Below are positions 1 through 16,800 of a stretch of 52,674 nucleotides of DNA, one piece after another (the stretch's first letter is position 1; each line of letters opens with the position of its first letter). Position numbers and translations under genes: made by a program. A model generated the notes under the pieces. That model searched no databases and was not told the origin of the DNA. It saw only the letters and a program-made list of their open reading frames with translations. Source of the DNA: a virus (taxonomy: Duplodnaviria; Caudoviricetes); the IMG/VR virus record IMGVR_UViG_3300030333_004669, positions 1 to 52,674 of that record; one strand, written 5' to 3'.

Positions 1-650
1 GCGTCGATGTATCGCTGCTTTACATCTTCACGAGAGCGCTTGACTTCTTTCATCGCATCCTCGTTGAGCTCATGCTCAATGTCGTTGAGCACCTCGATGC
101 TGGCCTTGAGCCTGTGATCTTCGCCAGCCGTGAATGTGGTTCGCTTGATGTCGAACCCGTAGCTATCAGCCAACTGCTCACGGGATGGGAAATCAACGTA
201 GTCGAACTCACTTCCAAGCCGCTTCTGAGCATCCTCGCGGATACTGTCGTAGTCCTCGTTGACTATCTTCTCGACCAACTCCTCAGCCTTGAGCTTGTAC
301 TCCTTGAGTTTGCTCATAACGTCAGGACAATACTTTGCCTGTATCATACGCCAGCCATCCTCACCGTAGGCACTCGTGCGAAACGCAAGGTAGGCACGGG
401 CCTCGTTAAGAATCTTGGCGTGCTTCTCCATGTTCTCGCCCTGCATCTTTGTCAGTCGTGCACCAACTGATGCGAGGTCAATGCCCTTGAGCATCGCAGC
501 CTCCTTGGCTACACGGTCTGACTTCTTGACGGAGCTCGGCTTCCTGAGCTTGATCCGAATGAGCATGATGCTCTGAGTCATGCGACGAAGAACCTTGTCG
601 CGGTTCTTGCCCAAGTCCTTGTTCTTTATTTGTATGTGGTTAACTTGCAT
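1..650 (-). CDS. DUF3150-like phage protein (partial, runs off the left edge)
   Basis: ATG at 650, open to the window edge (MQVNHIQIKNK...ARAYLAFRTSAYGEDGWRMI...RLGSEFDYVDFPSREQLADSYGF). The motifs resemble the family that usually accompanies phage MoxR ATPases. Absent from the ORF track because it has no stop. Confidence 0.65.
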   Translation of the reverse strand, partial: MQVNHIQIKNKDLGKNRDKVLRRMTQSIMLIRIKLRKPSSVKKSDRVAKEAAMLKGIDLASVGARLTKMQGENMEKHAKILNEARAYLAFRTSAYGEDGWRMIQAKYCPDVMSKLKEYKLKAEELVEKIVNEDYDSIREDAQKRLGSEFDYVDFPSREQLADSYGFDIKRTTFTAGEDHRLKASIEVLNDIEHELNEDAMKEVKRSREDVKQRYID

Positions 651-701
651 TACTTGTTTACTTGTTAGCGGTTAATACTTTTAAGTATAAGGGGATTAAC
701 C

Positions 702-1832
702 TTACCCATTATTCTTTTCGTCCCATGTCTTGTAGGCATCGGACGCCTCGTATGTCAGTCGATTCTTACCGAACGCAAAGAACTGACCTTGGTATTCCTG
801 CGGCCACCTGCCGATGTATCGACAGAAGGCTTCGGTCTTGCGCTTGTCTTCGACAGCCACGCCTTCCTCGTTCACGGGGCCAGCGGCATCGACTAATGAG
901 ATAGCCGTTGCGTAGTAGAGTCCCGGCTCCTTGGGCAGCTTGGCTTTCATTGGGTCGGCCAACACATCCTCGGGCTTGGGACATTGCTCATGCTTTTTCT
1001 GGAACTCGATGAACGCAGTGCCAGCAGCACGGCCAATGGTTCCGTAGATGAGCGCGTTGATCACACGAGGATTGGTGTACTCATCCCTGCCTATCTCAAG
1101 ACAGCCCTCCAGCAAACGGATGGCGTTGTGGTAGGAGCGAGCATTGCACTTCGCACGCTCGGGGTAGCTGATGTCATCACCGAATACCTGCTGACGCTGG
1201 TACTTGGCGAACGCTTGGGTGTAAGCTGGCAGGTTTTCATTCCGTGCCCAGCGAACCCATTGATCTGCATTCTCCTCGCTGTTGTGGGCAACATAGAGAT
1301 GGGTCATCCTAGTTGCCAACGCCTCGGAGAATTGTGTCGTGCCGATGTCCGACTCACCGTTGCAAGCGGCGACGATCCTGACATTGGCGTACAACTTGTG
1401 GCCATTGACCGAGCGATCCAGTATTATCTGCAACGCTACGTTCAGAACCTCCATCGTTGACCGATCCAGTTCATCCAAGAACAGGACAGCCCACTCTGTT
1501 GGGTTGCCTTTGACGCTGACGAATCCTGCGTCCATCAGGTTGCCGCCCATGTCGAACCGTTGAAACGGCATGAGCTTTGATTGAAGCCACTCCACCATCT
1601 TCTTCTTGGCGTCGATGAATGGCATGCCTCCAATATCGGGCGGCTCTTTGTCGCTGCATCGGAAATCGAACAGCGCCCAGTCCAGTTCACGGCAGATGTC
1701 GTAAACGATGGATGACTTTGCACAACCCGGTGCACCGATCAGGCACATGGGTTGGTCTTTCATTATCCCTACCTTAATGGCAGAGCGGATGACATTTAAC
1801 GGATAGGCGATTGCCTCGTTACTAATGCTCAC
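702..1832 (-). CDS. MoxR/RavA-like AAA+ ATPase
   Basis: Walker A GAPGCAKS (the AKS variant typical of RavA/MoxR), Walker B LFLDE, sensor IVAACN, ALATRM arginine finger. Confidence 0.9.
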   Translation of the reverse strand: MSISNEAIAYPLNVIRSAIKVGIMKDQPMCLIGAPGCAKSSIVYDICRELDWALFDFRCSDKEPPDIGGMPFIDAKKKMVEWLQSKLMPFQRFDMGGNLMDAGFVSVKGNPTEWAVLFLDELDRSTMEVLNVALQIILDRSVNGHKLYANVRIVAACNGESDIGTTQFSEALATRMTHLYVAHNSEENADQWVRWARNENLPAYTQAFAKYQRQQVFGDDISYPERAKCNARSYHNAIRLLEGCLEIGRDEYTNPRVINALIYGTIGRAAGTAFIEFQKKHEQCPKPEDVLADPMKAKLPKEPGLYYATAISLVDAAGPVNEEGVAVEDKRKTEAFCRYIGRWPQEYQGQFFAFGKNRLTYEASDAYKTWDEKNNG

Positions 1833-1901
1833 TTTGTTTTATCTTTCTTTAGTTGTTAGACGAACAGCCGAATTGACTGCTCCCGTCAAACAACAGACCA
1901 C

Positions 1902-1950
1902 ATTGTATCACACTGTGCCACAATGTCAATATTATTTTTTTAATAATAAT
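1902..1950 (-). promoter_or_regulatory. Sigma70-type promoter for the AAA ATPase operon
   Basis: The minus strand reads TTGACA (1929-1924), 16 bp, then TG-A-TACAAT (1907-1902), with an A/T-rich UP-like tract upstream. Confidence 0.75.
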
Positions 1951-1978
1951 CCTGGGCTGGCCTGTTGGTTGATGGGAA

Positions 1979-2002
1979 CAGCCACACCGAATGGCGTGGC
2001 TG
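1979..2002 (-). terminator. GC-rich hairpin, possible terminator or processing structure
   Basis: Minus strand CAGCCACGCC-ATTC-GGTGTGGCTG, a 10-bp stem with one G-U pair, directly after palindrome copy 2. The U tail is weak. Confidence 0.45.
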
Positions 2003-2022
2003 AGTTATACTTGAAAGTATAA

Positions 2023-2247
2023 CTATTTGATCATGGCCCTGATGTCCGTGATGGATTCCTTGACCAGATACTTCTTGTTAGTGCACACGATCTTGGTGAT
2101 TACCTTGCCGCACCTCAGCTTGAATGGCTGGATGGACTCGATGTACCTCGGATTGATGTGACGTACCCGCATGACCGCATCTAGCTTTTTGATCTTTGGG
2201 TTGTTGTAACCTTGTTCGGTATCTCCTGACAGCGTGACAGTTATCAA
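2023..2247 (-). CDS. Small protein, FlbD/SwrD-like
   Basis: HINPRYIESIQ...TKIVCTNKKYLVKESITDI resembles the FlbD pattern LNxxxIExI...T.I.L.NGKK..VKES. Confidence 0.5.
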   Translation of the reverse strand: MITVTLSGDTEQGYNNPKIKKLDAVMRVRHINPRYIESIQPFKLRCGKVITKIVCTNKKYLVKESITDIRAMIK

Positions 2248-2573
2248 GCGTCCTCCTTTCGTATGCTCTCGATGGCCTTGGCAGCTATGGTGTGAGGGTC
2301 ATCCTCCAGCGGCTTGTCGCACTCAGTCTTGATGTGCTGATTAAGAATGCCAGCAGCAGTTTCAAATGCACCTGCTATCTGATCTCGTGCTGCCTGAGGC
2401 ATCAGCGGACAGTTGATAGTATCAACCTGATCTGTTGATGCGTGGCTTGAACCCGCAACCCTGCCGCCGATGTGAGGCAAGAAGTCTCTGCTTACAGCTT
2501 CCCGAATATTACGGGCGAACTTCTGCATTAACTCTGACTGGCTTGCGAGTCTCTCTATTTTCTTGGTGTCCAT
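2244..2573 (-). CDS. Hypothetical protein
   Basis: 109-aa ORF in a tightly packed leftward run; overlaps the next gene by 4 bp. Confidence 0.75.
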   Translation of the reverse strand: MDTKKIERLASQSELMQKFARNIREAVSRDFLPHIGGRVAGSSHASTDQVDTINCPLMPQAARDQIAGAFETAAGILNQHIKTECDKPLEDDPHTIAAKAIESIRKEDA

Positions 2574-2577
2574 TAGC

Positions 2578-3018
2578 TTATACTTTCAAGTATAACTCCT
2601 CTTTCATAGGGTGCTCATAGCGCTCACGCTGCCTAGCAATAGCTTCTACTGGCACGTTGTGCTTACATCTAGCTGCCAACTGCTCATCAGTTAGCCCAGC
2701 AGGCGAGTCGTAGATGTCAACCACACCCCATTGGTATCCCCAATGGATGGCAAGTTGCACATAGTTTTCCCACTCCCACCTCTCAGTGTTTGTGTTGTCA
2801 ACTATGACAGTAGAGTCACCTCTATTTATGGCATAGATGAAGCGACTAAGGCATTGAGCATGAGCCTTGCCTAGTAGGCTTGGGTCGAAGTGGTATTCAT
2901 CAAGCCCCATCTCAAAGAACCTATCTGCTGAGCACACCGATGCATTGGGGAAGTTTGTATTCGCCCAATGAGTTTTGCCTGAGCCAGACAAGCCTTGCAT
3001 TATTATTACCTGTTTCAT
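2578..3018 (-). CDS. P-loop kinase (AAA_33 / N4BP2-like)
   Basis: IIMQGLSGSGKT Walker A, CSADRFF, VIVDNTN, R.KHNVP motifs. Confidence 0.85.
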   Translation of the reverse strand: MKQVIIMQGLSGSGKTHWANTNFPNASVCSADRFFEMGLDEYHFDPSLLGKAHAQCLSRFIYAINRGDSTVIVDNTNTERWEWENYVQLAIHWGYQWGVVDIYDSPAGLTDEQLAARCKHNVPVEAIARQRERYEHPMKEELYLKV

Positions 3019-3425
3019 TCGCTTATACTTTCAAGTATAGGTTTCACCATCGGATGGTTGGCCATGTTGGGGTTGATGCAGTACCGAGAACCGATAGTCC
3101 CATTGAGGCCCAGCGCCTTGATTTGTTTAGCCACATCCCTCGGGATAACCTCCCACTCATCCCAAGGTATTCGCCTACCTTTCGGCATCCTAGCTATCAC
3201 CTCGTCAACAGTTAACGGAGGGCAGTACCAACCTGCCTTGTCCCAGTCACCGTAGTGTCGGTAAACGATGCCTTCATCCTTGGACAACTGCTTCATTATC
3301 GCTTTCTCCTCAGGCCCGTATGGGTCAAGGGCAGGCAACTTTACCCAACCTTCTGGCGCTGGTTCCTCTGTTTTGTTTTTACCAGTGAAACCACGACGCC
3401 GCCTGTATTCGCTTATGTATGGCAT
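3015..3425 (-). CDS. Hypothetical protein
   Basis: 136-aa ORF with an ATGA overlap with the kinase gene. Confidence 0.7.
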   Translation of the reverse strand: MPYISEYRRRRGFTGKNKTEEPAPEGWVKLPALDPYGPEEKAIMKQLSKDEGIVYRHYGDWDKAGWYCPPLTVDEVIARMPKGRRIPWDEWEVIPRDVAKQIKALGLNGTIGSRYCINPNMANHPMVKPILESISE

Positions 3426-3430
3426 GGCTG

Positions 3431-3610
3431 TTAGTCTCCGATTGTTCGCAGTAAGCAGGAGAATGCATACTCATCACCTTCTGGTGGAGTAGGCACTCTG
3501 TCTTTGTCATCAATGGTGTAGTCGATTGACTGCACCATAGCCTCGGTATCCTTCGGTTGAGGATACCCCTCTGGGATTGCGTGAGACGCCGCCGCGTTTT
3601 GGTTTATCAT
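3431..3610 (-). CDS. Small hypothetical protein (59 aa)
   Basis: MINQNAAASHAIPEGYPQP...LLRTIGD*, preceded by A-rich AAACAAAGTA. Fills the gap between neighbours; below the ORF-track cutoff. Confidence 0.55.
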   Translation of the reverse strand: MINQNAAASHAIPEGYPQPKDTEAMVQSIDYTIDDKDRVPTPPEGDEYAFSCLLRTIGD

Positions 3611-3628
3611 TACTTTGTTTTTACTTGG

Positions 3629-3706
3629 TTACTTGATGAGTGCTCCACCATTAATGGTAGGTGAAGCGAGATAGCTTAACGCCATGATGGCGAATGCTGC
3701 GTACAT
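3629..3706 (-). CDS. Possible 25-aa hydrophobic peptide
   Basis: MYAAFAIMALSYLASPTINGGALIK*, with the ATG 2 nt after palindrome copy 5. Confidence 0.3.
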   Translation of the reverse strand: MYAAFAIMALSYLASPTINGGALIK

Positions 3707-3737
3707 GATTATACTTAGAAGTATAAGCCCGATGGTT

Positions 3738-4109
3738 TTAATGGCTCGCATTAATAGCCTCCTGTTGGGCCATAGCCTCCAGTTCGTCGTTCAGTACCGT
3801 GTCCCTATCGACATCGCCCATGAGGTTCTTAACCAGAGAGCGTTTCTCCGCTACGGGAATCAGTTCGCCGCGCTGTATGGCCAAGGCGTACATCCTTGCG
3901 ATAGGCAGCAGCCTGCCGCAGGATGAATACTCCTCGTCTCCCAACTTTGGATACCACCAGACAAATAGCTCACGAGGATTGATGGTTACCGCATTATGGT
4001 AGTCAGCAAACCGCATCACCTCGGCAATCTCTTTGAAGACTATCTGAGGAATTGCGTCATCAAACGTGCCGCTTAGGCCAGCGGCTTTGAAGAGTTCATT
4101 CTTGTTCAT
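3738..4109 (-). CDS. Hypothetical protein
   Basis: 123-aa ORF whose ATG overlaps the last base of palindrome copy 6. Confidence 0.75.
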   Translation of the reverse strand: MNKNELFKAAGLSGTFDDAIPQIVFKEIAEVMRFADYHNAVTINPRELFVWWYPKLGDEEYSSCGRLLPIARMYALAIQRGELIPVAEKRSLVKNLMGDVDRDTVLNDELEAMAQQEAINASH

Positions 4110-4123
4110 TATACTTATAAGTA

Positions 4124-4321
4124 TTATTTAATGGGGGAGTCCTTCAGCATTAAACCGAAGCCGATGTTCCCAAACTTGTGCTCGTTTGGATTGCGTTTGG
4201 TGCGGACGTAGTTGGTCACATGGGCCAACGGCTTCCCGTTCAGGGAACGCCAGCGCCGCACGTTGTTCTCGACCTGCTCTGGAGTAGCAGGTTCGCCGAT
4301 GTAGACATTATTCTTAGTCAT
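4124..4321 (-). CDS. Hypothetical protein (65 aa)
   Basis: ATG at 4321 after AAGGAAAAATAAA is more plausible than the TTG at 4372, which lies inside a hairpin. Confidence 0.6.
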   Translation of the reverse strand: MTKNNVYIGEPATPEQVENNVRRWRSLNGKPLAHVTNYVRTKRNPNEHKFGNIGFGLMLKDSPIK

Positions 4322-4356
4322 TTTATTTTTCCTTATGCTTATACTTCCAAGTATAA

Positions 4357-4392
4357 GCCCGTTAACCCTCAAGCGCGTGAGAGCTAACGGGC
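4357..4392 (-). other. 15-bp RNA stem-loop
   Basis: Minus strand GCCCGTTAGCTCTCA-CGCGCT-TGAGGGTTAACGGGC pairs fully only with G-U pairs, which indicates structure in the minus-strand RNA. Confidence 0.65.
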
Positions 4393-4432
4393 AAAAGGAA
4401 AGGGGCCACGCCGTAGCGTGACCCCCTTCTCC
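4393..4432 (-). terminator. Rho-independent terminator-like hairpin
   Basis: Minus strand GGGGTCACGC-TACG-GCGTGGCCCC (cUACGg tetraloop) followed by TTTCCTTTT. Confidence 0.65.
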
Positions 4433-4450
4433 TGATTATACTTTCAAGTA

Positions 4451-4675
4451 TTATTCAGCCACCGACCTGATGACTTTCAAGGCGTCCTCGAAACTGACGC
4501 CTGTTTCTGCCTCTATTATCTGAGCCTGCGAGTATTCGCAGGGACGCTGTTCGTTTGACCTCTTCATGGCGTCGATTCGCCTCCTCCTATCCTGAGCGTA
4601 CTCAGGGACGGGATGGTCAACGCCCACGACGAATTCCAACGCGCGTTGGAGAACCTTTTTTTGTGTCTTGGTCAT
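4451..4675 (-). CDS. Hypothetical protein
   Basis: 74-aa ORF bracketed by palindromes 9 and 8. Confidence 0.7.
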   Translation of the reverse strand: MTKTQKKVLQRALEFVVGVDHPVPEYAQDRRRRIDAMKRSNEQRPCEYSQAQIIEAETGVSFEDALKVIRSVAE

Positions 4676-4693
4676 AGCTTATACTTTTAAGTA

Positions 4694-5248
4694 TTAACCT
4701 TGAGCCTTCTTGGCTTCGACCTTGCCCTCTTTGACGAGGCGAGCAGCAGCCAACGCAGCAGCGCTGATTGCCTTTGCATCGTATTCGCCTTCGCCCAGCA
4801 TCAACGCCATGACATCGGTGAAGCGGTTGACCAAGCTCTCGTTTTTAACCTTGCGACCACCACCCGCAGCGCGAATACGCTCGCCCTTTTTGGCACGCAT
4901 CTCACGGAACTTGTTGCCGATGTGGCTGTCAGAATACCCCGCTTCGATTGCCCATGCCTTGATGGTCTTGTCCGAATATCCCTTGTTTTGCAGGATTGCA
5001 ATGTGACGGAACAGATTGCTCTCGCCCTTGAGCGCGTGCTGGCAGGTCTGGATGAACATCGCCCGATCTTCTGACGATTCATCTTCGCACTCAGTGACCA
5101 CCGACTCGCTGACTATTTCTTCCAACTGTTTCTCGTTATACTTTGGAGTATAACCTTTTCCCATTGAGAACTTTTTAATGGCTGAGTCCTCAGTTGATAA
5201 CGCGAACATGTCAATTTGTTCGCCCGATTTGTTAGCTTTATTTTTCAT
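4694..5248 (-). CDS. Hypothetical basic protein, first gene of the leftward early run
   Basis: The ORF is open from 5275. The ATG at 5248 (after ACAAAGTA) matches the start context of neighbouring genes. Confidence 0.7.
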   Translation of the reverse strand: MKNKANKSGEQIDMFALSTEDSAIKKFSMGKGYTPKYNEKQLEEIVSESVVTECEDESSEDRAMFIQTCQHALKGESNLFRHIAILQNKGYSDKTIKAWAIEAGYSDSHIGNKFREMRAKKGERIRAAGGGRKVKNESLVNRFTDVMALMLGEGEYDAKAISAAALAAARLVKEGKVEAKKAQG

Positions 5249-5601
5249 TACTTTGTGTGCGGGTACTACCCGCATTCACTAGGTAAAAACTCACGCATCA
5301 AAAAAGCGCTTTCACTGTTCGTTATCGTTTCATCCTTTGGGACATTTTCAGCCCAGCCCATTTTTCGCGTGGGAAAAAATCGTCCCAACAATAATCCAAT
5401 ATATTGAGATTCCTGCTGTTTACTGGGTATATATGGGGGTTGCTGGGAAATCGCTAAATCATAGGATACATACCCACCCCACAAGCGGGGTCGGTAGCCC
5501 TCGGGCTCTGGTATATAATATATGGGTCTTCTAGTTTTCTGAGCCAAAACCCGAAAACGGCCTTAGCGCGGGATCGCTAAAGCTGATATACTGAGCAACT
5601 C

Positions 5602-5739
5602 ATGTCTGAATTGATCAGTAACCTCCAAGAAGCGCTTGAAGAAATGGCAAAAACAGGAAATCAAAAAGGAATAGACGTACTCGAAAGAGCACTGAGGCAG
5701 GCAAATAAAATGATTAATACCAGACAGCCCTCAGATTAA
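5602..5739 (+). CDS. Small hypothetical protein (45 aa)
   Basis: MSELISNLQEALEEMAKTG...; extended -10 TG-A-TATACT ends 9 nt upstream of the ATG. Confidence 0.55.
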   Translation: MSELISNLQEALEEMAKTGNQKGIDVLERALRQANKMINTRQPSD

Positions 5740-6045
5740 GTGACCTTTAAATATATCGCGCTCTTTTAGGTAGTCTGAGAACTTAAAAAACTGGTGTCGC
5801 CGCTTGGGATCGGCATCCAAATCGTTCTTTACCTTAATAATCGCGTTATAAACAATCGTCCTGTCACGATTCCAGAACATCCCGATGATGGATTTCTTTA
5901 TTTGAGCCCGATCTGCGATATACATGCAGACATTTCTGGGCCAAGTGAGGCGTCTTAATCTGGAATTTGATTTGAGTTGCTCTAAATCCTGCTGGAAAAA
6001 TTCGGATGCAGCTTCAGCGAGCACCCTTTGATTGCGTAATTTCAT
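5731..6045 (-). CDS. Stand-alone DnaA C-terminal (domain IV) HTH protein
   Basis: LKSNSRLRRLTWPRNVCMYI...IGMFWNRDRTIVYNAIIKV aligns by eye to DnaA-C (SKSR.R..V.PRQIAMYL...IG..F.RDHTTV.HA..KI). Confidence 0.8.
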   Translation of the reverse strand: MKLRNQRVLAEAASEFFQQDLEQLKSNSRLRRLTWPRNVCMYIADRAQIKKSIIGMFWNRDRTIVYNAIIKVKNDLDADPKRRHQFFKFSDYLKERDIFKGHLI

Positions 6046-6230
6046 TCTGCGGCTGGCTTATTCTTATGCATGGGGCACTTATCGGACAAATAGAAGACTG
6101 GTTTACCGTCTTCCCCGGGCCATCCACGGCCATTTCTGTTATCAGGCACGGGACAAAGGCAGCCTTTACCTACGGCTGCGATGCTTCCCGGTGTTAGTAG
6201 TTCGCTTGGTGACTTTTCTTGCTTTTGCAT
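6042..6230 (-). CDS. Small Cys/His phage protein
   Basis: PGS..A...GC.CPV.DN..GRG...CPMH pattern. Confidence 0.65.
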   Translation of the reverse strand: MQKQEKSPSELLTPGSIAAVGKGCLCPVPDNRNGRGWPGEDGKPVFYLSDKCPMHKNKPAAE

Positions 6231-6567
6231 TTGTAGATTTTCGCTTCGCTTTCTTCCTTGGGGTTAGCATTGAGGCCATCCACTTGAAGGCATCTGGGTT
6301 ATCAGCCCATACAGCGCATATCCCATTGGTGATTCTGTTGGTGAGGTTCTCCTCATCGGTGGAGTTGATCCCCATTCCGTAGTGCACGGCATGTATGAGC
6401 TCGTGCAGGAAGGTGTTGGCTAGGGCGGTCTTAGGTTGATCCTCGATGATCCAGATGGTTAGCCCTGTAAAGTCGCACCAGCCCAGCTTGTCGCCCCCAG
6501 AATCGTCCTTCCCAGTCCACTTCACCTCGTATTGCAATCCGAGTACATTGACATTAGTGGGGCGCAT
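6166..6567 (-). CDS. Zincin-like HExxH metallopeptidase-domain protein
   Basis: G.CDF...TIWI...NTFLHELIHA with a downstream EE; basic C-terminal tail. Confidence 0.75.
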   Translation of the reverse strand: MRPTNVNVLGLQYEVKWTGKDDSGGDKLGWCDFTGLTIWIIEDQPKTALANTFLHELIHAVHYGMGINSTDEENLTNRITNGICAVWADNPDAFKWMASMLTPRKKAKRKSTNAKARKVTKRTTNTGKHRSRR

Positions 6568-6860
6568 TAGTTGTTCTCAGGTTTCTTGATCCAAGGGAGA
6601 ACGCGGTCATTGCCAAAGCATTCATTGTAAAACTGCTGCAAGGTGACCAGCCTGCCAAGTATGAACGCTGATTCTGGGGATAACATGCGAGTAACCTCAA
6701 TGTAGTTACTGGCTCCGATCTCAATGCTTTTGATTCCCTTAGCTGCAAACTCCTTGCCCAGTATTGAGGTAATACAATCTATCTCACCAAGCAGGTCTTC
6801 CTCGTTGGTTATTTCCAGCGGTTGGTTAGTAACATCGTAGCTATGGCCCCGTAATTGCAT
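6567..6860 (-). CDS. Hypothetical protein
   Basis: 97-aa ORF with TAATG coupling to the downstream gene. Confidence 0.55.
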   Translation of the reverse strand: MQLRGHSYDVTNQPLEITNEEDLLGEIDCITSILGKEFAAKGIKSIEIGASNYIEVTRMLSPESAFILGRLVTLQQFYNECFGNDRVLPWIKKPENN

Positions 6861-7222
6861 ATATCTATGGCGGTATCTTCTAATGATTCATCTTTTACCT
6901 TCGCCCCTTTGCCTTCCATTTTCTTTTGGGAGAGGTTGAGCAACCGCTGTACTTTATCATTTAACCTTATAGCCACGCCAATGACGTTCATGTCCCTGGA
7001 ATCAGAGAACGCGATGTTCTTTGAACCGTAATCGTGTTGCTTGTTATCAAACAGCTTGCACGCTTTTAGCGCTGTCTTGAGGCGCTCTTGCCCCATCTCT
7101 GTCTTGAGATTTAGCTGTTTCGCTAGAGTTGCCGCTATCTCGTCCTCCCTTCGCACTTGGGAAGGTGTCGAGGTAATCGGCCCAGTCGTCGTCATTCCAG
7201 AACCAAAAGGGAGATCGTTCAT
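6809..7222 (-). CDS. DUF1599 / nucleotide-modification-associated domain 1 protein
   Basis: KQHDYG..NI...GVAIRLNDKVQRL.NL...DESLEDT..D..NYGAI. Confidence 0.85.
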   Translation of the reverse strand: MNDLPFGSGMTTTGPITSTPSQVRREDEIAATLAKQLNLKTEMGQERLKTALKACKLFDNKQHDYGSKNIAFSDSRDMNVIGVAIRLNDKVQRLLNLSQKKMEGKGAKVKDESLEDTAIDICNYGAIATMLLTNRWK

Positions 7223-7494
7223 GTTTTTGCATTTAAAAATTCATAGTTATCCAACCAAGACCATAGTTTCTGATCCACGACTCGGACATCGTGATCAGGG
7301 CATTCTTGTTTATGGCTTCTTATGGCAGCCGCCAGATCGTTAATGACGGACTGCTTGTGAGCTACGAGGTCTTCCTCATCCATGATGAGGGGTTTCTCTT
7401 TTTTCTTATTGGGAATAATTTGTCCCATACGAATTACTTTAAAATTATCAGGCATTGTCTTTGGGAAAAAAAATTCCCAGCAACAAGGTGACAA
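7219..7494 (-). CDS. Hypothetical protein (start uncertain, possibly 7455)
   Basis: ORF in the operon with an ATGA overlap. Confidence 0.55.
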   Translation of the reverse strand: MSPCCWEFFFPKTMPDNFKVIRMGQIIPNKKKEKPLIMDEEDLVAHKQSVINDLAAAIRSHKQECPDHDVRVVDQKLWSWLDNYEFLNAKT

Positions 7495-7596
7495 ACGGAA
7501 ACCTTGTTACTGGGAAACGAGGGGTTTCAAGGGCGGGAGGAGCTAAGAAATCCCACCGTTCGGAGCTATTACCTCCGACACCATTCCCTCGTAAAT

Positions 7597-8271
7597 TTAG
7601 AAAGGATTACCTTCTCCGCTGTCAGAAGGGGCAACCGAGTGAAGCACTCCGATGTCGCCCACCATCTTCAACTTGGCTTTGGTGGTTCCGTCTTTGGCTT
7701 CGTAGACCTCTGCTGATGGTCGCCCTTGTGCGTAAACCATTGTGTCTGCCGTAAGGGAGTCAGCCTTACCTACGTTGCGCTCTCCAAAACCTACAAAATC
7801 CCAGTAGGTCTTGAATGTTTTGTCGGCATAATCGCCGCTACCTTGTTCTTCAGTTACGATGGTTCCACCGATAAACTGCTTCCCACTTGCCTTGCCAGTG
7901 AGAACATTGATGTCACGAACTAACCTTCCTGCTATAGCTGTATTATTCATATTTATTCTAGTTTCTGCTTTTTTGATTAAAGATGCTCTGACCTTAGCAA
8001 TAGCACTTATTTCAATTTGCTGGACGCGCTGACGGGAAATACCCATATCCTCAGCCACTTGTGACTGGGTTTTTACAGTATTTAAATCGAGTAGCTCCCT
8101 CTCAGTACCACCATACTCCTTTAATAAAGTCCTTCTATTCCTTTGGTCGAGTAAACACCTCAGGCAGATTTCTACTGGTTTTTCTAACGGGGAGAAGTAA
8201 ACGCTCCTGCAAGAAACACATAGGTAGAAACAACCTCTGCCTGACGCACAATTTATTGCATAGTCACACAT
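7597..8271 (-). CDS. ssb: Single-stranded DNA-binding protein (7597-7950) in frame with an upstream CxxC/sigma70-region-4-like HTH
   Basis: MNNTAIAGRLVRD...YWDFVGFG...VYAQGR...Y..KDG OB-fold with an acidic tail ending in PF. Upstream TQSQVAEDMGISRQRVQQIEISAIAKVR HTH and CVSC/CLRC. Confidence 0.8.
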   Translation of the reverse strand: MCDYAINCASGRGCFYLCVSCRSVYFSPLEKPVEICLRCLLDQRNRRTLLKEYGGTERELLDLNTVKTQSQVAEDMGISRQRVQQIEISAIAKVRASLIKKAETRINMNNTAIAGRLVRDINVLTGKASGKQFIGGTIVTEEQGSGDYADKTFKTYWDFVGFGERNVGKADSLTADTMVYAQGRPSAEVYEAKDGTTKAKLKMVGDIGVLHSVAPSDSGEGNPF

Positions 8272-8805
8272 TGTGCAACACTTTTCTTAATCTTTTTTCG
8301 AGATAAATTCGATTTCCTTTGGCGGTTATAACAGCGGGTAAATTAGTAACTGACGGTTAGGTTAAATCAGGTTATCGGGTTTGTTTTTCCGTCCTTTGTC
8401 GGCAACGAGTTTTGGTTACAGCACCCCCTTGGAAATCATATTAATTTCCTTATTTTGTTAATAAGCTCCTTTCCCAATCCTTACCCCCGTTATCCCCGAG
8501 GGTAGGCTAAAACATTATTAATCCTTGGCGTTTTGCCTAGTTTTCTTGGCGTTGCAGGCTGGGATTATTTGGTCTGTTTTTCCTTTCTCGTATAACTGAG
8601 TCTGGCTACAGCAATCATATCCTCAAACGCCGCGTGCAACCGATGTAACGTGCAGGTTTCCCTGCTTGGATATGCCCTTTTTACGGTCTTGGGGGTCGCT
8701 AATGAGTTGATCACGCTAGTGGCCCTACCAAGAAAACCTATGTGCGGGAGAGGTATAAATGTGTTATTGCATACTGTCAAACAATTTATTACATTGTGCC
8801 ACAGA

Positions 8806-9060
8806 GTGGTGCAGCATGTTGAGTTTTTTGTTGAGCACAGAGATGAGGAATGGTGGGTGATGAGCAAGAGCAGATCGTTCCCGAATCCAAACCCAGTGGG
8901 GCAGAGGTTCGTGAAGATGGAGTACGGCCCGATTCTGAAGGTGGTTCATCAGACGGAGGAGGAGGCGATCAAGGAGAGGGACTGGCTGGAGGATCACATC
9001 AAGCGGTACGAAATGCGGAAGGCGAAGACCATGAGAAAGAGGCGGCGAGCCACTTCATAA
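8806..9060 (+). CDS. Hypothetical protein (start uncertain)
   Basis: The 3' part of ORF 8650-9060 looks protein-like; its 5' part overlaps promoter-like sequence. Confidence 0.45.
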   Translation: MVQHVEFFVEHRDEEWWVMSKSRSFPNPNPVGQRFVKMEYGPILKVVHQTEEEAIKERDWLEDHIKRYEMRKAKTMRKRRRATS

Positions 9061-10802: not shown

Positions 10803-13800
10803 ATGGCAGATAAAAAAGTTTTTACTAATCTTCAGTTTGAAGGAAACGCGGAGTTAAAATTTCCAAGGGTACACCCCGATGGTTCAGCACCAGCATCCAA
10901 AGGGCCGGGGCAAGCCTACTTTGATACAGGAACAGGAGGCACACTAAACCTACAGTTCGCAGAGGCAGGGGGAACTAACGATTGGCGGGCAGTACACACC
11001 TCTGGCGTTCCGTTCAGCACCGATCAAGTGTTTACCTCCAGCTTGGCTACTGGGACTGCACCGTTCACGATTACGTCTACCACTAAAGTCGCAAACCTTA
11101 ATGTTGATAAACTGAATGGGCGTACTTGGTCTGAATCGACTACTGGTGACACTATTGTATCAAGAGATGGATTAGGCCGAATAAAAGTAACAGCACCTAG
11201 TTCCTCGGACACAAGCTCATCTTTAAATTTATACGCAGTCAATAAGGGCTACGTCGATAATGCGATTCAAGGGCTGGATCACAAATCATCTGTTCGGGTA
11301 GCCACGATAGGAGCTAACATTGACATTAGCGGAACCGCTACAGATATAGACCACGGCGATACCTTTAATGGAGTAAAATTAACAGAAGGAGATCGTGTTC
11401 TTGTTAAGGATCAAACTGTTAAAGCGGAGAACGGAATCTATGTTGTGGGGGCGGCGAATCAAGGAGTCTCAAGAGCTACTGATGCTGACACTACGGGTTC
11501 CACGGATATATCTGCTGGATCGGATGGTAGCGGTTTTACGGGGTCAGGCAGCGATGCAATATTAGGATGGTCAGCGTCTTCTGGGACACCATCTGTTTCC
11601 TCTGGGGCTTTATCATGGACGCATCCAAGCAACACAGATTGGCATTCTCTTAACACTACGTTCACGGCAGAATCGGGGAAAACGTATGTAATCAAGGCAA
11701 CATTCACGGGGAACACCACAGGGGCGTGGAATTTCAGAGCAACCGATGAAAATAGCCAGCATTCTACTGAATACGGAAATATTGGGGGAAGTTTCAATAA
11801 CGAGTCTGTTGAGTTAATCGTAACACCAAATATAAATGGTACTGTCTATGTTTATTTTAACAGTCAGGCAAGCGGGGCAGTAATTGAGTTGTCGGCGTTG
11901 TCAGTTTTAGAGACAGCTTTAACGGATGGTGCGTTTGTTTTTGTTGAAGAAGGGAATGCGTTGGCTAATACAGCTTGGGTATTGAGCGATGCTTCTCATG
12001 TTGGCGACTGTCTATGGACACAATTTTCTGGGGCTGGTCAGATTACCGCTGGAGATGGTTTAGCCAAGAATAGTGATATTTTAAGCGTTGATCTTGCCGC
12101 TGGAACACCCCTTCAGATTTCCAGCAACAAATTGTCTATGGCAGCGATTGGGGTGAATGACCTAGCCGATGACGCAGTAACCGCTGCCAAGCTGGATGAT
12201 GACGGTAACTTTACAATGGCCAAGTTAGGTCTAGGGGGTTCTCCTACGGCGACACAACTCGGTTCATCCAGTTGGCCTACCAACGCTTTAGATGTCAACG
12301 GTGCTATTCGTTTGCTTGGGGGAGGATACGCAACGTATGCGGCAAAACTAACAGCAAGATTAGACTCAGAACATTGTTTGACGTTAGAGTCACAAATTAA
12401 TGACACTACTCCGTTTGAGGTTATTGGGACGTATGCAGGAAGTGGTGGAGCAAGCCCACGGGTTGTGTTGTCAGCGAATGGCAAACCAGTAGGAATAAAT
12501 GTTACCGACCCCAGCGGAACCCTGCACGTTCAAACGGCGAGGTATGGGAGTAATCTTTTAACAGGATCAAAGGCGTTTACTACTACTAGCGGAACTGATT
12601 GGGCTGTTGAAGCAGGATGGTCTTTAAGCGGAGGAACCGCCACAAGGAATAGTAGCTCATCCGATGAAAAGTGGATTTACGTCACTTCATTAACTTCAGT
12701 TGGTAAACGCTATAAATTCTCATTTAATTTTAATAGGACTGCTGGTTCTGGTCATTTGGAGGTAGTGCAGTTTAACTCTGGCTGGATAGTAATTACAGAC
12801 AACGTGGCTAACGCTGACGGAGCAGGGTCAGTAACAGGTTATTATAACACTACAACAGGCAGTAATGGGGGTTTTTACATTCGGAACTCTGGAGAATGGC
12901 AGGGGACATTTACTGGACTGACGATAGTAGAGGACACACTAACCGCCAATGCTTCGGCTACGGAAGCTGGAGGTTTGTCGGTCAACGCTGCCGCCGATGA
13001 TCTGGTTATAGCGAACAACGATCACGGTGGTTTGTCTATTATTACTCCAGCGGATAAGAAGGGTATAATATTCTTTGGAGACAAGAACGACAATGACCGT
13101 GGTGGAATTAAATATGACCATGCCGAAAACAACAGCGAAGTAGCCACCGATGAACGTATGGAGTTTTCAGTTAACGGAGACAATAAAGCGTTAACTCTGC
13201 ACTCTGATCTGTCAGCAAAGTTTGAGGGTGGAATAGGTATAGGCACGGTAGAATCAACTGCTGGACATATTACTGCATTAGATACAACTCCATTAATCAC
13301 CGCAAAAAACAGCAACGACAATTTAGCCGAAATAGGGGCAGGATCAACGGGGGGTAAGTTTTATGCGGGAGGAGACAATGGGGCTATCTTGTTATCTACA
13401 TTTGGAACGTCATATCTTAATTCGGGTAATGTGGCTATTGGTGGGGATGCTGCTTCTGCAAAATTAGAGGTAATAACGGGCAGCAATACTGACGGCATTC
13501 AAATTCGCCGCAACAGCGCAAACGCAACGTCAACAGCATTACTCGGCTTTAGGACATCGTCTGGAGCTAACGCAACAAACACCTCTAGTATAGCGGCAGT
13601 TAGAACTAATTTACCTAACGCTGGAGACAACAAATTAGTTTTTCAAACACAAGCGTCTGGAGCGTTAGCAGAGCATTTGACCATTGACGGATACGGAACC
13701 CATGACCACAAAGCCAACCCCATCGTTAACTCCGCTACAGTCCAAGGATTGCAGGACGGGGCTTGCTACGATTTTGACGGGGAAAACACTACCCGCATAG

Positions 13801-16800
13801 CACTTCCCACGGCAGCTTATGATGCAGTTAAAGGCGACCGAATTACAGTTGCAGCATGGATTAAAAGAACATCCGATTCTGGCGAATATGACGGGATAGT
13901 GTCTGTTGATGGTTTGGTCAACCAGGCCGAAGGGTTCGCTCTTTTAATAGACGGTACAGACGATAAGCTATTTTGGCAATACGATGCTGGTAGCCAAATA
14001 GACCATAACGATTCTGGCGGCCAAGTGTTGGCACTAAATGTGTGGTATCACGTTGTTGGTATCTATGATGGGAGCAACCTCAAAACCTATGTAAATGGCG
14101 TTTTGGATCGCACACAGTCTGGTGCAGGAAAGGCTTTAAGTGGAACTAATAAGACCATTGTAATAGGCAACCAACACACAAATGCTAATAAATATTTCCG
14201 AGGCCAAATCAGAGACGTTAAAATCTTCCCCTCCGCACTTTCCGCTGGAGACATTCGCAAATTATATAGCGGCGAGAATCCGAAGAAGAATAACAATGTA
14301 GACTTGCTGGAAGGATACGGTGATGGCGAATCAGCAAGTGTTTCGCAATGGACAAACCAAAGTGGGGCTACAATTTCATCTGAAGATAACACTTTTAAAG
14401 TCACAACTACGGCAGCTTTTGTTGCGGCAAAAAGGAATGTCGCAACTACCGAAGGAAAACTTTATAAGGTTAGTGCGCTGGTCAAGGCTGGATCAGTTGG
14501 GGCTTTATTGGAAATAACTGGCACGGGTCTTTCATCTATTAACTCTGGAACCGTTACAAGTTCTTCTTTCGTTCGCAAAACCATATTCTTTACCGCTGCC
14601 TCGTCTACCTCAGTAGTTGAGCTTCAAGTGCAGACAAGCAGTAGTAGTGGAGGTACTGCTTATTTTGACGACATCACTTTTGAAGAAGTAGGAACCCTCG
14701 TAGATTTTACCCCTCAATCAGCTTCATCGTCCAAATGGAGAAACGAGGCACTACTTGGGTTTTACGATGGCACGGTAAACAACGCCACTCTGTCGCAGGG
14801 CAACTCTTATTGGAACAACATTAAGCAGGATGGGACAGCGACAACAATAGACGGATCGCTTGAGGTTCAAACTGCTTCTGGGGGTGAACTTAATTTTGAC
14901 CGAAACGGAAATAGCGGAGTTGCGATTCAGCTAAAGAACAACGGTGATATAGCCAGCGGGACACTTAAACTTGCTGGTGGTTCTGGCGTTACATTGTTCA
15001 CCAACGAAACTGAAGCACTATCTACTGCGGGTGGCGATGTAAAGGTGGCAGCCAAGCTAGGCATTGGAGACGTTGCTGACAATAACCATGATTTACGAAT
15101 ACATAACACTTCAAATTACGGTTTACTATTTTCTGGAACGAACGGGACTATTAAGTCTAACAACAATTTAGTAGTAGAGGCTACTCATAACATATATTTA
15201 CGACCCCAGACTAGTACCCAAGATTATGCTGTTCGTGTGGATACTGGTAAAGGGTTAAGAGTTACGTCTGGGACTGTAGGAATTGGAGCAGGAGCAGCAA
15301 ACCCTTCTACCGAGGGGTTGGAGATTGCTAATCCATCTGCCGATACGACTTATGATTTAAATAGCCAAGCGGATAATCTTCTGGTTATTCGGAATAGCGA
15401 TACATCAGCTAATTTGAATCGGTTTGCTGGGTTCCAAATGAAGATTAATTCCGATTCTTTAGCAGCAGAGGGAACTATACGAACCCAGTTTGCCGAAGAT
15501 GGTGGAGCGGATTTAATATTCTCAACAACAAAGAGTGGGAGTGGAGTTGACCGATTAACATTAGACAAGGACGGTGTTCACAATCACCACGGCAACCACA
15601 CAGTTAACTCCGCTACAGTTCAAGGATTGCAGGATGGGGCTTGTTACGATTTTGATGGGGCTAGTGGTTCTGTTTACACTTCATTAGCTGAGAATCCATT
15701 TAAAGGTGGTGGCACAATTTCTTTGTGGATAAATGGAAGAACGGTCGGGGAAGGCTCGTTAGGGAGGTTGTTTGACTCTGTTGGGTACGGAGTGTTATCT
15801 CACCTTGACGGTGCAAGCGGAGGGGCATACCGAGTTTATTTTTCTCAAGCTCACTCAACGGATTTAGGAGGGTGGCACAGCGGTTACGCTTTTGAGCTAA
15901 ACAAGTGGAACCATGTAGTCATCTCTTATAACAACGCATCAACTTCTAACAACCCATCAATTTGGATAAATGGTGTTTCACAGACTGTTACCGAAGCCTA
16001 CACACCAGATGGGACAGCTTCTGATTCAGCAAGTGGTCAGATATATTTAGGCGGGAATAGTGGCGATAACAGAACATGGGACGGCAGTATAAGAGACGTA
16101 AAAATCTTCCCCTCCGCATTGGAAGATGCCGATGTTCGCAAACTCTATAGCGGCGAGAACCCGAAGAAGAATCTTAATGTAAACTTAGTAACTAACGGAG
16201 ATTTTAGTTCTGCGCTGGGAACTACATGGGCGGCACGGAGAAGCGCAGTAGTCTCAATCGTCAGCGGGGAGTTAAAGGTTGTAAACGCTGGGGGTGTAGG
16301 GAGTGGTATAGCGGAACAAGCCATAACTCTTACGGGGGGTAAAACCTATAAGCTAAAAGCAGACGTAAAATCTTTTTCTGGGCTGACTCAAGCGTATATG
16401 CGGGTTTGGACTACATCTGCGACTTCGGGTGGTTCCGCTGATCTAGATAAAGTTGTAACCGCAGGAGATGACCAAGAGTTTGTTTTTACGGTTTCTGGTA
16501 GTGGTTCAGTTACTCGCTATGTGACCCTACAAGGTTATGGCGGCAGCAATGATGACTATGTAGTTTTTGATAATGTTTCCCTAACAGAAGTCGGAACCCT
16601 CGTTGATTTCACCTCTGATTCAGCAAGCACTAGCAAATGGTACAATGATGCACTACTTGGTTTTTATGATGGCACAGTAAACAACGCCACGCTTTCGCAG
16701 GGTAACTCGTACTGGAATAATATAAAACAGGACGGCGATGGTGTTGAATTTAAAAATAATATAGGTATAGGTACTGCCCCTACTACATGGAAGGCAACGA

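Follow-up and report, generated by a model that had tools for sequence, protein, structure and literature searches.

The marine phage family described here uses lineage-specific palindromes as intercistronic joints at which accessory genes turn over. It was recognized in a complete viral record of 52,674 bp (IMG/VR record IMGVR_UViG_3300030333_004669, hereafter the window), which originates from an uncultured marine phage and has an estimated completeness of 74 %; the genomes of the family have a size of approximately 65-71 kb. In the non-structural region of the window an array of small genes is punctuated by the palindrome TTATACTT-NN-AAGTATAA. This architecture is conserved in relatives, the palindrome is replaced by other palindromes in sister lineages, and the genes between the palindromes have been gained, lost or replaced, with breakpoints in the motif or within a few nucleotides of it. 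We tentatively interpret the palindromes as cassette joints used by recombination in the accessory array, a reading that we rate a little short of an even chance. An operator role is a serious rival.

The palindrome and its ten copies

Ten matches with at most one mismatch were present, all of them within positions 673-5153 of the 52.7 kb. The chance expectation was 0.01 in a dinucleotide-preserving shuffle, and none of 100 shuffles reached ten matches. A tolerance of three mismatches added one further site only, at position 29376, which is doubtful (chance expectation 0.2); the motif is otherwise missing from the remaining 47.5 kb, and the late region of the window has no copy. On the plus strand, the central dinucleotides of copies 1 to 10 are TT, GA, TC, TC, AG, AT, CC, TC, TT and TG. 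A preliminary description of this DNA, made from its letters, had reported ten copies with a variable central dinucleotide, nine of them at or near gene boundaries, and none in the other 47 kb. The same ten coordinates and dinucleotides were recovered, and gene boundaries hold nine of the ten copies, the tenth being intragenic. Literature searches gave no description of the motif letters or of a similar system in phages; a match of the letters in PMC12658196 consisted of unrelated primers.

According to GC skew and open reading frames (ORFs), the genes of 1-8271 are all encoded on the minus strand, therefore upstream and downstream around the palindromes have to be read on this strand. In this direction the palindrome represents essentially the entire intercistronic gap or brackets a terminator, and as a general pattern the stop codon of the preceding gene falls in or against its 5' end. 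Copy 10 (5136..5153) is located within the 184-aa ORF and is translated as Y-T-P-K-Y. The first three nucleotides of copies 9 (4679..4696), 8 (4436..4453) and 6 (4109..4126) form the TAA stop codons of genes for 184 aa (4694-4696), 74 aa (4451-4453) and 65 aa (4124-4126), respectively. Copy 9 is followed by the ATG of the 74-aa gene, copy 8 by an intrinsic terminator, and the last A of copy 6 is the A of the next ATG. Copy 7 (4339..4356), the first joint past the terminator, precedes a 17-nt leader with AAGGA and the ATG of the 65-aa gene. Copy 5 (3709..3726) lies 11 nt past the stop of the 123-aa gene and just ahead of the ATG of a hydrophobic ORF of 25 aa. The 136-aa gene continues through copy 4 (3023..3040), and its end overlaps with the start of a kinase gene (TGA/ATG overlap, ATGA). 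On the minus strand, copy 3 (2578..2595) ends with the TAA that terminates the kinase gene (2578-2580), and the ATG of a 109-aa gene follows. Copy 2 (2005..2022) abuts the TAG (2023-2025) of another 74-aa gene; behind it, on the same strand, come a GC-rich hairpin and then a sigma-70-type promoter. Copy 1 (673..690) is situated 11 nt past the stop of an ATPase gene (702-704), with an ATG at 650 after the 22-nt A-rich leader ACAAGTAAACAAGTA.

The contribution of copies 3, 6, 8 and 9 to stop codons, the stop adjacent to copy 2 and the ATGs right after copies 3, 4, 5, 6 and 9 had been noticed in the preliminary description, and all were found again, the spacings to the ATG being 4, 4, 2, -1 and 3 nt in this order. 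These five ATGs have no Shine-Dalgarno sequence. About half of the window copies show a motif-to-ATG spacing of -1 to +5 nt. The GC-rich hairpins behind copies 8 and 2 close transcription units.

Relatives and sister lineages

Scanning viral contigs for the exact motif yielded 78 stretches, nearly all with single chance matches. Among them was an 8.8-kb locus, L052, with nine copies at syntenic junctions; three near-matches in L177 belonged to an unrelated AT-rich repeat region and were discarded. A scan of the viral contigs for a TAATAC variant gave single chance matches only, a locus search in viral contigs with the ATPase as single protein gave no match, and a search with an 18-nt conserved stretch of the promoter region recovered L052 only. 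A profile of the ATPase identified 18 metagenome loci, in which the motif was counted at three mismatches or fewer. Half of these loci carried two to eleven copies (L198 eleven, L197 seven, L195 and L202 four each, L196, L199, L203, L204 and L205 two each); L195 is 100 % identical to the window, so it is not an independent case. Single matches with three mismatches in L208 and L209 may be due to chance, and no copy was detected at this threshold in L200, L201, L206, L207, L210, L211 and L212. The preliminary description had proposed such a scan of genome and relatives; it confines the motif of the window to the array and places further copies in L052 and nine of the 18 ATPase loci. In the loci of the relatives, the array runs on for several kb beyond the left end of the window.

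The sister lineages possess palindromes of 16-19 bp. In lineage 2, with an ATPase 40 % identical to that of the window, a 17-bp palindrome ATAWCTGG-S-CCAGWTAT was present in six loci with 14 (L206), 17 (L208), 7 (L209), 10 (L210), 4 (L207) and 3 copies (L211). There the preceding stop codon overlaps the first base, the ATG is placed 1 nt after the palindrome or over its last two bases, and some copies precede hairpins. Lineage 3 (the 55 % lineage) has ATTACT-CGCC-AGTAAT, once each in L200 and L201 and three times within 6.2 kb in G012. Two more lineages were found via a recombinase gene considered below: lineage 4 with TTATACTGT-N-ACAGTATAA (14 copies in G005, 20 in G006, 10 in G010) and lineage 5 with TTAWACTAT-S-ATAGTATAA (six copies in G004). 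Between the lineages the outer arms are similar (TTATAC, ATAWC, ATTAC), the inner six to seven bases are lineage-specific. The lineage-2 genome G001, with 71,220 bp and an estimated completeness of 100 %, contains 19 copies, 12 of them in an 8-kb accessory array. Of the other seven, one is located in the replication region directly ahead of the recombinase gene and six in a minus-strand region. Several of these seven occur at or near late-gene junctions on the opposite strand, in the same sense orientation, at least three of them at clear junctions, and one lies inside a giant gene.

Arrays of a different kind, repeats of about 36 bp with GAACGAGTCA / GAGAGAACCA words in 10-15 copies, were observed downstream of replication genes in L206 (17147-18412) and also in L207, L209, L211, L242 and L243.

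Gain and loss of genes at the joints

The flanks of L197 and L198 are 98-99.9 % identical, and the difference between the two loci is one gene of 132 aa together with one palindrome; the two blastn alignments overlap in the palindrome. An additional 74-aa gene lies in L198 between two palindromes at a place where the window has copy 6 alone. L052 is devoid of the 74-aa and the kinase cassettes of the window, and one palindrome remains. The DNA homology between the window and L198 stops 2 nt past copy 3. Between copies 3 and 2, L197 and L198 contain largely non-homologous DNA between matching palindromes, with proteins of 39-41 % identity. Palindromes flanking recent cassettes have private variants in common, and several blocks of homology in lineage 2 have their ends within 0-4 nt of a palindrome.

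The stretch was wholly or partly present in 20 DNA runs of eight studies, and the contigs of four runs from four seawater studies were compared. In contigs of runs X6 and X7, the joint 2575>3021 leaves out 445 nt corresponding to the kinase cassette; it lies inside the motif, and 19 letters are compatible with either side. In all four runs, a joint 4456>4703 leaves out 246 nt, the 74-aa cassette. Run X2 contained a 225-letter insertion with a 33-nt duplication over copy 6 (joint 4134>4102). Three runs had contigs diverging from the window at 2026, and two runs had such contigs at 4102. The preliminary description had suggested that the palindromes make each small gene an exchangeable cassette, with gain and loss at the motif in relatives as the check. 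Such changes were found, one of them at a junction slightly outside the motif, and comparisons between related loci and with contigs from four studies support the proposal as a pattern.

Recognition of the site

Conservation in lineage 1 was counted over 45 distinct copies. ATAC and GTAT are invariant and the conservation is mirror-symmetric, as are the substitutions: T7>C occurs five times and A12>G five times, T2>A 15 times and A17>T nine times. No copy joins C7 to G12. In lineage 2, G8 (43 of 43 copies) and C10 (42 of 43) are placed around a single central base. The bases beside a centre of 1-2 nt are unable to pair in a hairpin, therefore their complementarity points to two-fold symmetric contacts in duplex DNA. 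The predicted RNA hairpins of single copies are weak, with -1.3 to -10.4 kcal/mol for 19 folded copies, and have no T-run. Because the conservation is mirror-symmetric up to the one or two central bases and the RNA hairpins are weak, recognition of duplex DNA by a symmetric dimer seems more likely than an RNA hairpin. The purine-rich centre of the sense strand (AA 20, GA 9, TT 1) speaks against a purely DNA-level view, but common descent or the position at translation initiation may explain it. Each copy is complementary to every other one, and in RNA, copies 8 and 7 (4335-4458, minus strand) are predicted to pair around the terminator and a second hairpin of 15 bp (-65.7 kcal/mol, z -8.7).

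Proposed recombination at the joints

In the favoured explanation, the presence of the same 18-22 bp at every joint would enable recombination to add, remove or replace one gene-sized module with its neighbours undamaged, by exchange within one genome or between co-infecting relatives. A protein with two-fold symmetry would recognize the sites in duplex DNA. For the exchange itself two options appear about equally probable. An XerD-like tyrosine recombinase of the family could use the palindrome as core site, with the outer arms TTATAC and GTATAA around a lineage-specific spacer of 6-7 bp and with one or two free central bases that could set partner compatibility. Alternatively, a homologous recombination system of the Sak4-like / PD-(D/E)XK type could act on the joints as micro-homologies. 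A regulatory role may exist alongside the function as joints.

Candidates for both machineries are encoded in relatives. G001 codes for a 291-aa XerD-like tyrosine recombinase (PF00589, E 6e-20), the ATG of which is located 1 nt after a palindrome and about 10 kb from the dense array, and furthermore for a Sak4-like AAA_24 protein, a PD-(D/E)XK/DUF2800 nuclease and a DnaB helicase. A search for homologs of the recombinase retrieved 31 proteins, some of them on contigs of up to 77 kb. Among 21 viral loci with a homolog, nine had the palindrome of their lineage 0-11 nt ahead of the gene, namely all five loci of lineage 2 and four loci of lineage 4. PF00589 is absent from the 74 %-complete window, from which the region corresponding to that of G001 is missing. 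Serine recombinases, to which the preliminary description had compared the sites on account of their central two base pairs, were not found: neither a serine recombinase nor a resolvase was detected in the two records searched, G000 and G001. The complete relative of the sister lineage has a tyrosine recombinase. The earlier statement that the window encodes no identifiable cognate protein still applies to the window. Scanning contigs of bacterial reference genomes, one genome per species, with the recombinase profile gave eleven candidates, of which only two distant matches (22-24 % identity) passed, neither of them a prophage relative. The finding of no prophage relative therefore gives no support for an ordinary lysogeny integrase and is a weak argument against it.

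A more specific version would be an integron-like cassette system of the phage. The XerD-like recombinase would use the palindromes of 16-19 bp as minimal core sites, and the inner and central bases would constitute a compatibility code deciding which joints and lineages exchange. In core sites of the lox/FRT/dif type, inverted binding arms enclose a spacer of 6-8 bp, the place of strand exchange. The motifs can be parsed accordingly as TTATAC-TTNNAA-GTATAA, TTATAC-TGTNACA-GTATAA and ATAWC-TGGSCCA-GWTAT, yet the spacers are palindromic and the conservation ends at 18-22 bp. We regard this version as plainly unlikely.

Several observations weigh against recombination as the function of the joints. 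The recombinase was not detected in the lineage of the window. The motif of the window was present in none of the 21 recombinase loci and in none of the ten whole records searched, and the recombinase-bearing G003, G007, G008 and G009 had no variants of lineage 1 or 5, G003 also none of lineage 4, in a search that did not include the variants of lineages 2 and 3. With 18-22 bp, the conserved part is short for sites of the Xer, Cre or FLP type. The joint 4456>4703 sits 3-6 nt outside the palindromes with four shared letters only; this event was therefore not a crossover at the motif centre. An extra 99-aa gene of L052 has a palindrome on one side only, and a junction that carries a palindrome in L198 has none in the window, thus gene and motif are not always one moving unit. 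The run contigs were aligned at a minimum likeness of 85 %, and joints below 95 % can stem from other organisms; the supporting contigs had mostly 95-99 %. Finally, viable phage mosaics break at gene borders anyway, and here the motif is the gene border.

Alternative explanations

The serious rival to recombination is an operator or roadblock function, in which a dimeric phage protein would bind all palindromes and shut or time the accessory operons, recombination being a by-product of sequence identity. Precedents are the stoperators of L5, the conserved inverted repeats of phiC31, the C1 operators of P1 and the KorB sites of RK2. The preliminary description had already proposed a site for a dimeric protein. 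Mirror-symmetric conservation up to the central bases, with substitutions tolerated symmetrically, fits that proposal, and so do the spacing of the half-sites by approximately one helical turn, the individual sequence of each lineage, as expected from co-evolution with a protein, the transcription of the units from sigma-70-type promoters, and intragenic copies in the first gene of the unit in the window and in L052 at different positions. Direct support was not obtained, and no binding protein was identified among the candidates examined. A 224-aa fusion protein (7597-8271, minus strand) with a Cys-rich N-terminus, a helix-turn-helix (HTH) like that of sigma-70 region 4 and an SSB/OB-fold, encoded by the first gene of a leftward unit, shows the same recognition helix in lineages 1 and 2 although their palindromes differ, and was therefore rejected as the specificity factor. 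A 104-aa protein resembling domain IV of DnaA (5731-6045, minus strand) matches the C-terminal DNA-binding domain of DnaA (E 6e-10), and the half-site TTATAC resembles the start of a DnaA box. This protein is present in L208 (42 % identity), but the syntenic position in L052 lacks it and a homolog was not detected in L206, which weakens it as binder. The 184-aa protein was rejected, its HTH-like helix differing between the window and L052 while the motif is shared, with no match to a family. Moreover, copies are located just ahead of terminators and behind the final gene of a unit, positions at which a roadblock is without effect. The seven G001 copies outside the dense array, including those at late-gene junctions, extend the sites into late operons of a sister lineage, and single copies are dispensable. 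The similarity of the outer arms and the difference of the inner bases between lineages would be the reverse of what is expected for HTH operators. On balance we consider the operator possible, although on the unlikely side.

An RNA element would fold in the polycistronic mRNA for translational coupling, start control, processing or stabilization, or would bind a translational regulator at the start codon, with analogies in T4 RegA and the MS2 operator. The palindrome is always placed in transcribed intercistronic space and close to many ATGs that lack a Shine-Dalgarno sequence, the purine-rich centre of the sense strand is consistent with a role in RNA, and so is the predicted pairing of copies 8 and 7. 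The window has a GC-rich palindrome where L052 has the motif ahead of the first gene. However, most of the predicted hairpins are weak, the conserved complementary bases beside the centre could not pair in them, and T7>C, which creates a C.A mismatch, is as frequent as the wobble-compatible A12>G. Here the stem sequence is conserved and the loop is free, whereas known RNA operators that bind proteins show the opposite pattern. A Shine-Dalgarno sequence is in any case lacking in many genes of the phage, and the ortholog of the 136-aa gene is preceded by a palindrome in L198 and L052 but by none in the window. RNA hairpins, offered as an option in the preliminary description, are thus disfavoured, and we judge an RNA element to be quite improbable; the start-associated sequences of Cluster K phages are a further analogy (PMC3203893). 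Very improbable in our view are selfish mini-elements of the REP or MITE type that spread through intergenic space with secondary effects on expression and recombination. Many lineage-specific and individually dispensable copies in extragenic transcribed positions would suit them, as would one motif-only presence/absence difference between the window and L198 and the genome-wide spread of copies in G001, G004 and G006. The palindromes are much shorter than REPs, and stops and starts are packed into the arms in a frame-aware manner, which speaks for a long coexistence with the genes and against recent insertion. A Y1 (RAYT-type) transposase (PF01797) was not found in G000 or the complete G001, with controls matching in six of 14 genomes.

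We attach almost no credence to a promoter for a phage-specific RNA polymerase, either T7-like or of the N4 hairpin type, that would give near-leaderless single-gene transcripts. The length and the ends of the motif recall the T7 promoter (TAATAC...TATA, then a purine), and the closest cultured relatives of the ATPase are N4-like phages, with 26-29 % identity only. A phage RNA polymerase was not found in PHROG and Pfam scans of the submitted ORFs of the window and relatives, a part of all ORFs. A search for PF00940 in G000 and G001 had no match, but carries no weight because the positive controls gave none either. The 3512-aa ORF (10803-21341, plus strand), a size that brings to mind the giant virion RNA polymerase of N4, contains four Laminin_G_3 (ConA-like lectin) stretches as its only matches; it had no PHROG match and no polymerase match, including among solved structures. 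The idea of an N4-like phage was abandoned with this lectin-domain protein, and the resemblance to the T7 promoter with the result of the polymerase scans. Furthermore, sigma-70-type promoters and intrinsic terminators frame the units, copies lie ahead of terminators and inside genes, and the perfect dyad symmetry is unlike promoters of single-subunit polymerases.

Comparison with known systems

The system touches the long-standing question of how phages shuffle small accessory genes for host takeover and counter-defence while leaving the neighbours intact. It offers a clean and testable case: one short joint sequence with lineage versions, differences by whole cassettes in seawater, and two candidate machineries in relatives. 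Should the recombinase act on the joints, a virus would possess a system for capturing cassettes. As operators, the joints would give a phage family without detected prophage relatives a global control similar to that by stoperators. In both cases, the motif can serve to spot this phage family and to delimit its accessory genes in metagenomes.

Integrons show a likeness in promoterless genes of one orientation that are each bounded by an imperfect palindrome near the stop codon, and in the cassette as unit of gain and loss. Integrons encode their own tyrosine recombinase; here PF00589 was detected in relatives only (G001 and the 21 viral loci). Their attC sites comprise 57-141 nt, share a structure rather than a sequence, and recombine in the form of folded single-stranded DNA. 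In contrast, the sites described here have 16-19 bp and a near-invariant sequence within a lineage, the candidate recombinase is XerD-like, and an equivalent of attI or Pc has not been defined. The stoperators of Cluster A phages are asymmetric 13-bp sites to which the immunity repressor of a temperate phage binds as a monomer. Stoperators, phiC31 repeats and the palindromes have in common that a short site occurs in many copies across the intergenic spaces of transcription units, but the palindromes are dyad-symmetric, no repressor candidate survived and no prophage relative was found in the genomes scanned. RNase III sites of the T7 type are irregular RNA stems that extend over roughly two helical turns. 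In the predicted folds, the stems of single copies did not exceed 9 bp, and a long structure was given only by copies 8 and 7 together.

The closest known systems are the modular shuffling at promoter-early stem-loops (PeSL) of T4-type phages, which is alike in behaviour (PMC2839356), and the start-associated sequences (SAS) of Cluster K, alike in position (PMC3203893). For the PeSL cassettes, recombination between the repeats was proposed to drive modular shuffling (PMC2839356). The likeness lies in a repeated intergenic motif beside small accessory genes and in a gene flanked by two repeats in one phage that corresponds to a single repeat in a close relative, which was observed here for L197/L198, window/L198, window/L052 and the joints 2575>3021 and 4134>4102. 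A PeSL is described as a composite that extends over about 100 bp, combines a strong sigma-70 promoter with a stem-loop terminator and forms its own transcription unit (PMC2839356). The element of the marine phages is in contrast a bare dyad of 18-22 bp inside operons, often over stop or start codons, without promoter or terminator, and it changes its sequence between sister lineages. Seven of eight promoter-like sites are clear of the palindromes, and the terminator-like hairpins are separate sequences beside copies 8 and 2.

The SAS of Cluster K are likewise short conserved repeats a few nucleotides ahead of many non-structural start codons, with stop codons sometimes inside; the ESAS inverted repeats have a subcluster-specific consensus and the function of SAS is given as unknown in the passages available (PMC3203893). 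In these passages, the SAS is an asymmetric 13-bp sequence with a Shine-Dalgarno core, 3-7 bp ahead of the start, and the ESAS consists of imperfect inverted repeats of 17 bp with spacers of 4-13 bp; cassette turnover at SAS sites is not described in them (PMC3203893). The element of the window differs as a single tight palindrome that contains neither GGAG nor AGGA and is also located ahead of terminators.

Genes of the array and remaining genome

The proteins of the palindrome stretch are mostly small and without assigned family, apart from an AAA_33/polynucleotide-kinase-like protein and an AAA_5 (MoxR-like) ATPase. The palindrome-flanked genes may be called early genes, a label that we infer. 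The presence of a sigma-70-type promoter and an intrinsic terminator makes transcription of the units by the host polymerase probable.

The first gene of the palindrome-bearing unit codes for the 184-aa protein (4694..5248, minus strand). It evolves fast, with 32 % identity to the L052 ortholog, and has positional counterparts in lineage 2. Inspection by eye suggests an HTH-like core and a basic GGGRK stretch; family, structure and atlas searches gave no match. Ahead of the gene, a GC-rich perfect palindrome of 15 bp, GCGGGTA-C-TACCCGC (5259..5273), occupies the exact place of an AT-rich palindrome copy in L052. The 74-aa cassette (4451..4675, minus strand), which L052 lacks and which all four runs omit in contigs, is followed between copies 8 and 7 by a non-coding unit (4357..4425, minus strand) composed of the terminator (stem 4402-4425, T-run 4393-4401) and the hairpin with a 15-bp stem (4357-4392). 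Such a unit between two palindromes is also present in L052 and in L206, L208, L210 and G001 of lineage 2. Next on the minus strand are the 65-aa gene (4124..4321) and the 123-aa gene (3738..4109); the DNA of the latter has no match in L052, and the X6 and X7 contigs diverge at 4102. Three genes for 25, 59 and 136 aa (3015..3706, minus strand) are joined without a palindrome in the window. In L198 a palindrome lies between the orthologs for 59 and 134 aa, and L052 has the extra 99-aa gene with a palindrome at the same place.

The AAA_33/polynucleotide-kinase-like cassette (146 aa, 2578..3018, minus strand) is situated between copies 4 and 3; L052 lacks it, and contigs of X6 and X7 omit it. Together with a weak match (E 1e-4) of L202 4034-4462 to the cyclic phosphodiesterase domain of tRNA ligase, it is a hint of RNA repair functions among the cassettes. 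Copies 3 and 2 enclose the 109-aa and 74-aa genes (2023..2573, minus strand). The sigma-70-type promoter TTGACA-16-TACAAT (1902..1929, minus strand; 11/12, with TG) behind an A/T-rich stretch would drive the unit of the AAA_5 ATPase (702..1763, minus strand), which served as marker for finding relatives. Positions 1-9000 contain eight promoter-like sites, against a shuffle mean of 10.1; the only one in contact with a palindrome is a weak plus-strand site, TTGAAG-17-TATACT (9/12), with its end in copy 6. No common -35 element was apparent in the 12 nt that precede the copies.

A megablast of positions 1-8000 against cultured phages and the Rfam and tRNA scans gave no match. The large terminase subunit (25382-26854, minus strand) is encoded on the strand opposite to the structural genes; among cultured viruses it matches haloarchaeal tailed viruses only, and weakly (approximately 25 % identity over half its length). 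Giant ORFs are also a feature of the late region of G001 (3160 and 2602 aa).

A second, non-palindromic type of leader, (A)CAAGTAAACAAGTA or ACAAAGTA, stands directly ahead of ATGs without palindrome at 651-672, 3611-3628 and 5249-5258 and recurs in L052, L197, L199, L202 and L204; lineage 3 has a repeated GAAAGGAACCAT ahead of ATGs instead. Between two leftward gene blocks, a 45-aa ORF (5602-5739, plus strand) behind a TGGTATATAAT-type sequence (5508-5527) is conserved in L052.

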